The notes beneath the pieces were generated by a model. It was not told the origin of the DNA. It saw only the letters and a program-made list of their open reading frames with translations, and searched no databases. From the IMG/VR virus record IMGVR_UViG_2526164609_000027: a DNA stretch of 5,934 nucleotides; one strand, 5' to 3'. Source of the DNA: a virus. Lineage: Duplodnaviria > Heunggongvirae > Uroviricota > Caudoviricetes. This document shows, piece after piece, positions 1,296-2,366 of the stretch (its first letter is position 1; each line of letters opens with the position of its first letter). The translations under genes and the position numbers were made by a program.

Positions 1296-2366
1296 ATGGC
1301 TAACGCCTGGCTCAGATTATGGCATGACATGCCAAATGACCCTAAGTGGCGAACAATTGCCAGGGTGTCAGGGCAGCCAATTGCAACAGTGATGGCAGTG
1401 TATATCCACCTCCTGGTGAGCGCGTCACGAAATGTCACGCGAGGTCACATTGATGTCACGACAGAAGATTTGGCAAGTGCGCTCGACGTGACAGAAGAGG
1501 TAATTGATTCAATTTTGCAGACGATGCAGGGGCGGGTACTTGATGGTGATTTAATCACTGGATGGGAAAAACGCCAGGTGCTGAAAGAGGACAACGGCAA
1601 TATTCCGCAAACCGCAAAATCTCCTGCAGAGCGCAAGAGGGCGCAGCGAGAGAGGGAAAGAAAGCGGGAACAAAATGGCGATTGTCACGGCGCGTCACGA
1701 TATGTCACGCACATGTCACGACGAGTCACGACAGATAAAGATACAGATAAAGATACAGATCAAGAAGATCAAAACACTATGGTCCATGGCGTAAAAAACG
1801 CCACGAACCAGGCAGGGGATGTTCAGACCGTCAATCCTGGTCAGCCAGCAGGCACGACACCGGAAGCCGATTCAGCGTATGCGCTGAAAGCCGATTCGGG
1901 CGCTGTGCAGCAGGTGATGACCGCAAGTCCGGAGCAATCACACCAACTGCAGCAGCCTGAAGCCGATTCCGCCATTCAGCGGGAAGCCGATCGGGTAGTC
2001 CCGGAAAACACCGGGCAGTCTGTGGGACGAGTGGATTATCCGGATGTGTTCGAACAGGTCTGGCGGGAGTACCCGTTGCGTGCCGGGGCAAACCCGAAGA
2101 AATCCGCTTTCAGTGCCTGGAAGGCCAGATTACGCGAGGGGGTGCCACCAGAGGCCATGCTGGATGGCGTGAGGCGTTACGCAAGATACCTGGCGGCTAC
2201 CGGGAAAACGGGAACGGAATTTGTTCAGCGAGCGACGACGTTTTTTGGACCGGACCGGAATTTTGAGAACCCCTGGTTGCTCCCGGTAAGCGGCACGAAC
2301 AACCAGCGTTGTGTGAATCATATTTCTGAACCGGATAGCGAAATTCCGCCGGGCTTCAGGGGGTAA
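1296..2366 (+). CDS. Phage replication initiation protein with DnaT-like (primosomal protein I-like) C-terminal domain
   Basis: Long ORF directly after the cro/cII-like pair. Likely start is ATG 1296 (MANAWLRLWHDMPNDPKWRTIARVSG...) with AAGAGG SD at 1284-1289; the track's GTG 1290 abuts the SD. The C-terminus ...NHISEPDSEIPPGFRG closely resembles the C-terminal tail of E. coli DnaT as I recall it (...[13 protein letters not shown]). An acidic low-complexity linker (DKDTDKDTDQEDQ) sits mid-protein. Confidence 0.85.
   Translation: MANAWLRLWHDMPNDPKWRTIARVSGQPIATVMAVYIHLLVSASRNVTRGHIDVTTEDLASALDVTEEVIDSILQTMQGRVLDGDLITGWEKRQVLKEDNGNIPQTAKSPAERKRAQRERERKREQNGDCHGASRYVTHMSRRVTTDKDTDKDTDQEDQNTMVHGVKNATNQAGDVQTVNPGQPAGTTPEADSAYALKADSGAVQQVMTASPEQSHQLQQPEADSAIQREADRVVPENTGQSVGRVDYPDVFEQVWREYPLRAGANPKKSAFSAWKARLREGVPPEAMLDGVRRYARYLAATGKTGTEFVQRATTFFGPDRNFENPWLLPVSGTNNQRCVNHISEPDSEIPPGFRG
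1421..1460. repeat. Iteron cluster 1: four direct GTCAC(G/A) repeats at 10-11 bp spacing (putative initiator binding sites)
   Basis: GTCACG at 1424, 1434, 1455 and GTCACA at 1444; an inverted copy CGTGAC at 1487-1492. Lies within the N-terminal coding part of the replication gene. Confidence 0.6.
1681..1730. repeat. Iteron cluster 2: five direct GTCACG repeats at 10-11 bp spacing (putative ori core)
   Basis: GTCACG at 1684, 1694, 1704, 1715, 1725. The hexamer falls in all three codon phases, so the repeat is at the DNA level rather than a peptide repeat. The cluster resembles cluster 1 over about 45 bp (both end gtcacgacaga). Confidence 0.65.
1731..1770. repeat. Tandem 12-bp repeat (acagataaagat x2 plus a degenerate third copy) with two GATC sites, directly after iteron cluster 2
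   Basis: acagataaagat at 1731-1742 and 1743-1754, then acagatcaagaagatc; GATC at 1758-1761 and 1767-1770. Encodes the acidic DKDTDKDTDQEDQ linker. Flagged as A-rich by eye, not computed. Confidence 0.55.

Follow-up and report, generated by a model that had tools for sequence, protein, structure and literature searches.

Phage initiators that combine an O-like protein with a piece of the primosomal protein DnaT have been described as DopC and DopE, which carry the DnaT C-terminal domain (CTD) and have a P-like loader as their partner (Brezellec et al., 2017, PMC5509034). On the host side, dnaC is regarded as a domesticated phage gene (PMC5109545), and the handover from the Escherichia coli preprimosome to DnaB-DnaC is acknowledged as an unsolved question (PMC13377028; PMC11087952), with the DnaT tail not discussed in the cryo-electron microscopy (cryo-EM) paper (PMC13377028). 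Here we analyze a replication initiator gene in a stretch of 5,934 nucleotides (nt) from a Caudoviricetes virus (IMG/VR record IMGVR_UViG_2526164609_000027; this whole stretch is the window), the product of which ends in a DnaT-type tail (...QRCVNHISEPDSEIPPGFRG). The gene itself is ordinary, and its family is already annotated and common; the interest lies in a separable DnaT peptide whose presence follows the type of helicase loader. Our comparisons, which cover several hundred loci of phages and prophages, show that the type of tail varies with that of the loader, a rule that appears to be unreported, and literature searches for DnaT-like initiators or for the PPGFRG motif found nothing.

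The similarity of the window protein to DnaT is confined to its very end. In a BLASTP comparison with the E. coli DnaT reference sequence (100% identical to PDB 9zbt_D), the alignment was restricted to the last 25 residues, of which 16 are identical (pairwise E 5e-8), so that the near-identity to the DnaT C-terminus recorded in a preliminary description of this DNA is borne out. That description had also placed a DnaT-like module in the preceding ~80 residues, and this part fails: neither a DnaT domain nor the CTD is there, and profile comparison leaves a likeness that stops at the terminal peptide. The NCBIfam DnaT model (NF002770) matches residues 333-356 only, at profile positions 156-179 (E 7e-4), and as a whole-protein DnaT equivalog the product fails, with 19.2 bits against a cut-off of 201. 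Similarly, in a phmmer search of the PDB the match to the DnaT C-terminus is limited to residues 335-356 (E 0.01-0.03). A Pfam scan of the window protein returned no DnaT domain (PF17948), and a hidden Markov model of the DnaT CTD made here scored -0.6 bits on it versus 88 bits (E 3e-29) on the initiator of a prophage of E. coli 7_12_15B (L001). The three-helix domain that binds single-stranded DNA (ssDNA) in DnaT (PF17948; DnaT residues 84-153) is not present in the window protein, nor does the protein match the Pfam DnaD/DnaB_2 profile (PF07261); the conserved DnaT terminal peptide, ...RDVNxVSEPDxxIPPGFRG, is present.

An hhalign comparison of a 189-sequence alignment of the C-terminal core domain, which precedes the tail, with a 51-sequence DnaT-CTD alignment reached 32% probability across 30 columns (P 5e-4), a likeness too weak for remote homology to be either claimed or excluded on its basis; window residues 273-306 (AWKARLREGVPPEAML..RYARYLAATGK) are paired with DnaT 107-136 (LWGVALREPVTTEELA..FIAYWQAEGK). 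A protein search with DnaT 86-179 returned DnaT fragments alone, as its word index could not reach phage proteins. At the nucleotide level, the last 39 nt are 82% identical to K-12 dnaT and six of the seven differences are synonymous, and this mostly synonymous divergence indicates a peptide under selection and no recent copying. The terminal sense codons are AGG GGG here (window 2358-2366) and AGA GGG in K-12 dnaT (L004 2976-2990). What the tail represents is a portable short linear motif, not homology to DnaT.

To assess how widely this motif of about 19 residues (R-D-V-N-x-I-S-x-P-D-x-x-I-P-x-G-F-R-G) occurs, we scanned for back-translated DNA patterns, using P[DE]xxIPxGFRG followed by a stop on IMG/VR; the samples are the matches listed (120 per scan), which are redundant and derive mostly from E. 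coli prophages. The pattern lies in frame at the C-terminus in 120/120 IMG/VR contigs among the matches listed, where the complete pattern-matched proteins are initiator-like and 260-400 amino acids (aa) long. The match exceeds chance, and conservation extends to positions left free by the pattern (R-18 in 88%, D-17 in 80%, N-15 in 87% and S-12 in 88%). Tail-bearing proteins have at least four kinds of N-terminus (Pfam HTH_36, Phage_rep_O and DUF1376, and the window type) and at least five C-terminal bodies (Pfam DnaT, Phg_2220_C, the window core domain and two unnamed types), and the ending is present in only ~17 of the best 150 core-domain representatives, the rest ending otherwise. In species-representative genomes, the in-frame C-terminal matches on sizeable open reading frames (ORFs) were all from Enterobacterales and comprised 74 chromosomal dnaT genes and ~30 prophage initiators. 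YdaU of the K-12 Rac prophage, a DUF1376 protein, also has a DnaT-type tail (...VNTVSLPDSAIPPGFRG), on which we found no literature; a mention of YdaV in an interactome preprint was set aside as an unrelated or mistaken annotation. The L001 initiator (3500-4991) has the N-terminal domain and the iterons of the window together with a DnaT CTD (PF17948, 64 bits), but it is without a DnaT-type tail, ending in ...LDCSDWRDD ahead of a P-like gene. A CTD without the tail in L001 and a tail without the CTD in the window indicate that DnaT joins two pieces that phages use separately.

Several other endings were seen in the core-domain family. Those in ...SGFSEQDYGQSDCNW and ...DKFGKSSDKLTF are followed every time by a divergent DnaC-like gene (P0192-P0332; L326-L407), an ending in ...DD[LI]P[DE]W... 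is similar to the SSB tail DDDIPF, and one in ...DQNLQxPxDxEEWQS..DWGxDE is like the ends of P-linked initiators. In four IMG/VR contigs (L060, L071, L080, and L092), the last ~95 residues of proteins of ~270 aa amount to an almost complete C-terminal half of DnaT, with both CTD and tail (for example ...QQRDVNAVPEPDSEIPPGFRG); these proteins are possibly relatives of the ancestor of dnaT, no loader lies within 4 kb in these contigs, and the next gene in L060 and L071 is putatively RuvC-like, as judged by eye. By inspection only, the tail sequence does not fit a ClpX-type degron or a beta-clamp-binding motif, and it is not a strict mimic of the SSB tail, in which, unlike here, the Phe is terminal.

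Loaders 3' of initiators were identified by ORF chaining and tblastn, including the DnaC-like genes in loci with a "724-nt gap". In the 120 listed IMG/VR tail-bearing contigs, a DnaC-like gene begins 2-6 nt downstream in 71, a DUF977 gene with no loader within 4 kb follows in 37, nine have another arrangement and three have no room, and a lambda-P-like or DnaB-like gene lies downstream of the tail-bearing gene in none of the 120. In the species genomes, a DnaC-like gene adjoins ~24 of 30 tail-bearing prophage initiators, and dnaT is followed by dnaC in all 74 cases with room. The 2-nt dnaT-dnaC spacing equals that of many phage initiator-loader loci. The tail had been proposed as an alternative to a DnaC-type loader, a view that these counts contradict, since most relatives carry it 2-6 nt upstream of a DnaC-like gene.

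The association extends to the kind of loader. Core-domain initiators ending in ...DKLTF or ...DCNW have a DnaC-like neighbor wherever there is room (26/26), and among those with a DnaT-type tail 23 have such a neighbor and 49 lack one. Identity to E. coli DnaC is 43-52% for the loaders beside DnaT-type tails (n=65 unique), 29-34% for those beside CNW tails (n=11) and 31-33% for those beside LTF tails (n=9), with the DnaC-like proteins of both classes belonging to PF01695. Within a single family that joins HTH_36 to the core domain, no loader accompanies a DnaT-type or degenerate tail (25/25), and CNW, LTF or LNF endings go with an adjacent DnaC-like gene (5/5). Among 115 phage initiators sampled for the DnaT CTD, 93 are tail-less (mostly ending in ...DWxDD) and all of these adjoin a P-like gene, P is absent beside all 10 that have a DnaT-type tail, and the other loader-less members, seven out of seven, carry tail variants, for example IPDGFTG and IPxGFRGYQxx. 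When initiators are clustered at 80% identity, 27 cluster-contexts with DnaC and 12 without have the full DnaT-type tail, and eight with DnaC have the LTF or CNW endings.

The window itself is loader-less. As the preliminary description had stated, no P-like or DnaC-like gene follows the initiator, the downstream genes being DUF977, DUF4406, Ead/Ea22 and those of an insertion sequence (IS) element of the IS66 family. The DUF977 gene here fills the slot that a loader gene has in relatives, and in L090 and L030 the initiator and DUF977 genes are separated by a DnaC-like gene. The annotation of a related prophage (L002) lists no coding sequence similar to DnaC, P, DnaB or O. The complete genome of phage Tritos, which carries a window-type initiator and no other replication gene, likewise gives no tblastn match to any of these four; the loader-less module thus stands alone in a deposited complete phage genome. 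Such a replication module is reportedly what Weigel and Seitz termed "initiator-solo" in 2006. Among initiators without a loader, the DnaT-type tail or one of its variants is by far the most frequent ending, and this preference fits dependence on a host factor. The proposal that host factors stand in for a phage loader accordingly survives insofar as the loader gene is missing and the tail preference fits, and loses its second half, in that recruitment through PriA/PriB is unsupported. A second loader-less lineage (L331, L342, and L365 in IMG/VR) joins HTH_36 to the core domain and ends in ...YDNVDYSQIPAGFRG, with the IPxGFRG end of the motif only; 3' of the initiator in these contigs are genes for a PerC-domain protein, a putative adenine methyltransferase, a LexA-like protein and RusA.

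The gene is a real ORF with an ATG at 1296 and a stop at 2364-2366, as judged from the ORF list and the sequence, and encodes 356 aa. The PHROG family phrog_3729, "replication initiation protein", covers the whole protein (E 5e-255), and the RefSeq annotation of relatives has the corresponding 1071-nt frame, with the orthologue named "phage replisome organizer". The N-terminal domain is weakly matched over residues 5-125 by TIGR01714, phage_rep_org_N (E 0.033; 14.4 bits versus a cut-off of 49.8), as well as by PHROG "initiation" and "replisome organizer" families (phrog_4880, "replisome organizer", E 3.8e-5). Across residues 200-243 of the linker the AlphaFold 2 (AF2) confidence score pLDDT is ~46; a 36-nt direct repeat in the linker (1860-1895 and 1956-1991, 75% identical) codes for the repeated PEADSA-type peptides. 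The core domain that follows has the motif F..VW..YP.RAG.NPK..A..AWKAR..G....ML.GV.RYA....G..GT.FV..A.TFFGP and defines a separate, large family, with 4080 representative clusters at E<=1e-3, found fused to varied origin-binding N-termini.

The gene also appears to contain its own origin. GTCACG occurs 11 times in the window versus 2.7 expected, and nine of these copies lie within 1424-1730, inside the gene, as two arrays spaced at 10-11 bp. The iteron positions are kept in L001, L002, L061, and L105; in L001, L061, and L105, window-type N-terminal domains are joined to different C-terminal halves and the iteron arrays occupy equal codon positions, and in L003, which has the window-type C-terminal half and a different N-terminus, the arrays are absent. 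Because the iterons follow the N-terminus and not the C-terminus, this co-occurrence suggests a unit of origin recognition made up of the iterons and the first ~125 residues, comparable to that of lambda O, and the adjacent AT-rich stretch is presumed, by analogy with the lambda ori, to be the unwinding region. The ori-like repeats had been said to encode the acidic linker, which is approximately right: the iterons at 1684-1730 code for CHGASRYVTHMSRRVTT, and it is the adjoining AT-rich 12-mers that encode the acidic DKDTDKDTDQEDQ.

From the co-variation of tail and loader we infer that the tail docks an E. coli DnaC (EcDnaC)-type loader. The reading that we favor, with a probability of about 0.5, is that it docks such a loader or the DnaB-DnaC complex, here those of the host, so that the loader-less initiator would bring DnaB6-DnaC6 to the origin. 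In the proposed mechanism, for which gene arrangement suggests the binding partner and the order of events, the N-terminal domain would recognize the intragenic GTCACG iterons beside the AT-rich stretch as the origin; the long disordered linker would lead to the small helical domain common to thousands of phage initiators; the disordered 19-residue peptide (RxVNxISxPDxxIPxGFRG) would then dock the EcDnaC-type loader or DnaB-DnaC; and host DnaB6-DnaC6 would be brought directly to the phage origin through a peptide that DnaT also carries. By the same reasoning, the extreme C-termini of lambdoid initiators may act like loader-specific docking peptides.

A broader proposal, which we hold tentatively and at somewhat less than even odds, is that the DnaT 19-mer is a phage-derived peptide for docking DnaC-type loaders (DnaC by itself or DnaB6-DnaC6), that dnaT-dnaC is a co-domesticated cassette of an initiator C-terminus and a loader, that the tails of lambdoid initiators are loader-specific in general (...DWxDD for P, ...DKLTF and ...DCNW for divergent DnaC-like proteins, and the DnaT type for EcDnaC-like ones), and that loader-less phages take the host DnaB-DnaC by displaying the DnaT peptide of the host at their origin. 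If true, this would name the missing contact for helicase-loader recruitment by the PriA-PriB-DnaT preprimosome, and docking would explain the replication of loader-less lambdoid phages. The comparative pattern offers a specific and cheap hypothesis in tail-to-DnaC docking, and the tail/loader pairs are a natural set for swaps.

Several points weigh against docking to DnaC. No DnaT-DnaC interaction is documented (PMC5778457; PMC11087952, 2024), and the part of DnaT proposed as the recruiter of DnaB/DnaC is the N-terminal domain, not the tail (PMC13377028, 2026 cryo-EM). Removal of the C-terminal 18 residues converts the DnaT trimer to a dimer, according to the summary of Szymanski (2013) in PMC5314882, and the tail modestly raises the cooperativity of ssDNA binding by DnaT (PMC4132743). 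The cluster counts are small, and the samples redundant and dominated by E. coli prophages. Since the tail codons adjoin the loader gene, linkage during mosaic recombination could itself yield the co-variation, and since the AGG GGG end codons double as a Shine-Dalgarno (SD) sequence, terminal conservation may be partly at the level of DNA. Moreover, the copy in the window sits in an IS-riddled prophage, and its use may be over.

Among the alternatives, the one put forward in the preliminary description, that the tail and the preceding region are a DnaT-like module which, instead of a phage loader, draws the restart primosome of the host (PriA/PriB, then DnaB-DnaC) to the phage origin, we regard as unlikely. 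The tail is common to the window protein and DnaT, the window and its intact relatives are without a loader gene, loader-less initiators favor the DnaT-type tail, and the window protein has an acidic linker, just as PriB is bound by the acidic linker of DnaT (PMC13377028). However, the DnaT CTD is absent from the window protein, the DnaT contacts described by cryo-EM are those of the CTD bundle with PriA and of the linker with PriB, with none described for the tail (PMC13377028), and most relatives have the tail coupled directly to a DnaC-like gene. Siblings with a true DnaT CTD are mostly tail-less and use a P-like loader, so that CTD and tail are separable and not one module.

About as doubtful is the idea that the tail binds another host protein (DnaB, PriC, SSB or DnaG) in the manner of an SSB-tail-like acidic-hydrophobic peptide. 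Its D-x-x-I-P-x-G-F presumably resembles the SSB tail DDDIPF, and this idea would account for the confinement of the inspected tail-bearing proteins to Enterobacterales, for the retention of the tail by loader-less initiators and for the SSB-tail-like DD[LI]P[DE]W endings of related initiators. Nevertheless, the Phe of the tail is not C-terminal, in contrast to SSB tails, and as all these phages use host DnaB, a tail that binds DnaB need not follow the DnaC clade or avoid P-type modules.

An equally small chance is left to the tail as a self-association element, serving oligomerization or cooperative ssDNA binding with no external partner. The trimer-to-dimer change noted above, as summarized in that source, speaks for this, as does the binding of dT30 by DnaT 84-179 with a lower Kd and a higher Hill coefficient than by DnaT 84-153 (PMC4132743). 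At least five unrelated C-terminal bodies and at least four N-terminal domains bear the tail, however, which makes a common intramolecular docking surface unlikely, and self-association leaves the tracking of tail and loader unexplained. Far less probable than any of these is that conservation is mainly at the DNA level (a ribosome-binding site or translational coupling) or is functionless inheritance in this prophage. In its favor, the last codons are AGG GGG or AGA GGR (rare Arg, SD-like) in ~79% of 133 unique contexts; DnaC-linked loci have the start of the next gene 2-6 nt further on, a spacing that with SD-like AGR end codons suggests translational coupling of initiator and loader; and the window prophage is broken by three insertions (IS1, IS3-family fragment and IS66 element). 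Against it, the 19 conserved residues are free to change synonymously, the next gene in the window lies 40 nt off with its own AGGAGG and the tail still intact, and loader-less lineages keep the tail. Docking to an EcDnaC-type loader or to DnaB-DnaC is the reading that we retain.

The gene order of the window is that of a Rac-type early operon, in the early-right lambdoid position 3' of cro/cII-like genes, and the ORF encodes the replication initiator of a Rac-like lambdoid prophage. The equivalent block in E. coli prophages is 95-97% identical, and the block is also present in the deposited phage genomes vB_EcoS-689R5, Tritos and Evi; names given to the initiator in phage records are "DNA replication protein O", "Replication protein, N-terminal phage replisome organiser" and "Primosomal protein I". 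At least 80 IMG/VR contigs carry a C-terminal half that is 96-99% identical, and no complete E. coli genome in the collection searched covers ≥80% of the window. The features are listed in Table 1.

Table 1. Features of the initiator gene and the surrounding prophage; positions are those of the window, except in the last row, where they refer to L408.
Feature	Position	Strand	Basis or remark
IS1 end	1-275	-	
IS3-family orfA fragment	254-517	-	87-aa ORF
Cro/HTH-like regulator gene	533-802	+	context
YdaT/CII-like gene	799-1224	+	immediately 5' of initiator; PF06254 E 1e-9; phrog_163 E 4e-44
Shine-Dalgarno sequence, AAGAGG	1285-1290	+	5 nt 5' of ATG; read directly from sequence
Initiator coding sequence, 356 aa and stop	1296-2366	+	ORF list, phrog_3729, RefSeq orthologue name
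Putative N-terminal origin-binding domain, residues ~1-125, replisome-organizer-like	1296-1670	+	TIGR01714, PHROG
Iteron cluster 1	1424-1492	+	GTCACG at 1424, 1434, 1455; GTCACA at 1444; inverted copy at 1487-1492
Low-complexity linker, residues ~126-243	1671-2024	+	predicted disordered; PEADSA-type peptide repeats
Iteron cluster 2	1684-1730	+	five GTCACG, spacing 10-11 bp
AT-rich stretch	1731-1775	+	tandem 12-mer ACAGATAAAGAT twice, third copy degenerate; codes for acidic DKDTDKDTDQEDQ
C-terminal helical core domain, residues ~244-329	2025-2282	+	not DnaT-like
DnaT-type C-terminal tail, residues 338-356	2307-2363	+	RCVNHISEPDSEIPPGFRG; predicted disordered
DUF977 (Ren-like/LygF) gene	2407-2829	+	PF06163 E 3e-30; 40 nt 3' of initiator
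DUF4406 gene	2826-3131		3' of DUF977
Ead/Ea22 gene	3118-3573		3' of DUF4406; IS66 element comes next
IS66-family element	~3600-5934	-	right after ead/Ea22; tnpC 5161-3623, tnpB 5557-5210, tnpA 5934-5554
K-12 Rac prophage ydaU-ydaV	1620-3230 (L408)		DnaC-like YdaV begins 6 nt after ydaU

Compared with known systems, the window protein has weak structural similarity only to the DnaD-like organizers (Bacillus subtilis DnaD and the SPP1 G38P type). Like the O protein of the lambda O/P system, it is encoded at this point of the early-right operon by a gene that itself contains iterons and an AT-rich region, and it would share the division of labor in which the N-terminal domain binds the origin and the C-terminal part handles the loader. 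It differs from that system in having no Pfam Phage_rep_O or Phg_2220_C match, another iteron sequence and no P gene, and in its DnaT-type end, whereas lambda O ends in ...TDWIYGVDL. The Rac YdaU-YdaV pair shares the operon context (ydaS/cro-like, ydaT, initiator, ..., DUF977) and the DnaT-type tail, but YdaU has a DUF1376 N-terminus, another C-terminal body and the DnaC-like YdaV, of which the window has no counterpart.

Similarly to DopC/DopE and initiators of the L001 type, the window protein is an O-like initiator that uses a piece also found in DnaT, and L001, which has the features of a DopC-type protein, shares its N-terminal domain and iterons; the piece is a different one, since those proteins have the CTD (PF17948) and P with no IPxGFRG end, and the window protein has the tail with no CTD and no loader gene. 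In relation to E. coli DnaT (primosomal protein i), the window protein has neither the DnaT N-terminal domain nor the three-helix bundle of the CTD, and it is an origin-binding initiator without a dnaC-like gene downstream, not a fork-restart adaptor. Nonetheless, the two have the last ~19-25 residues in common (SEPDS[EQ]IPPGFRG), and relatives of the window have a DnaC-type gene at a distance of 2-6 nt, as in dnaT-dnaC.

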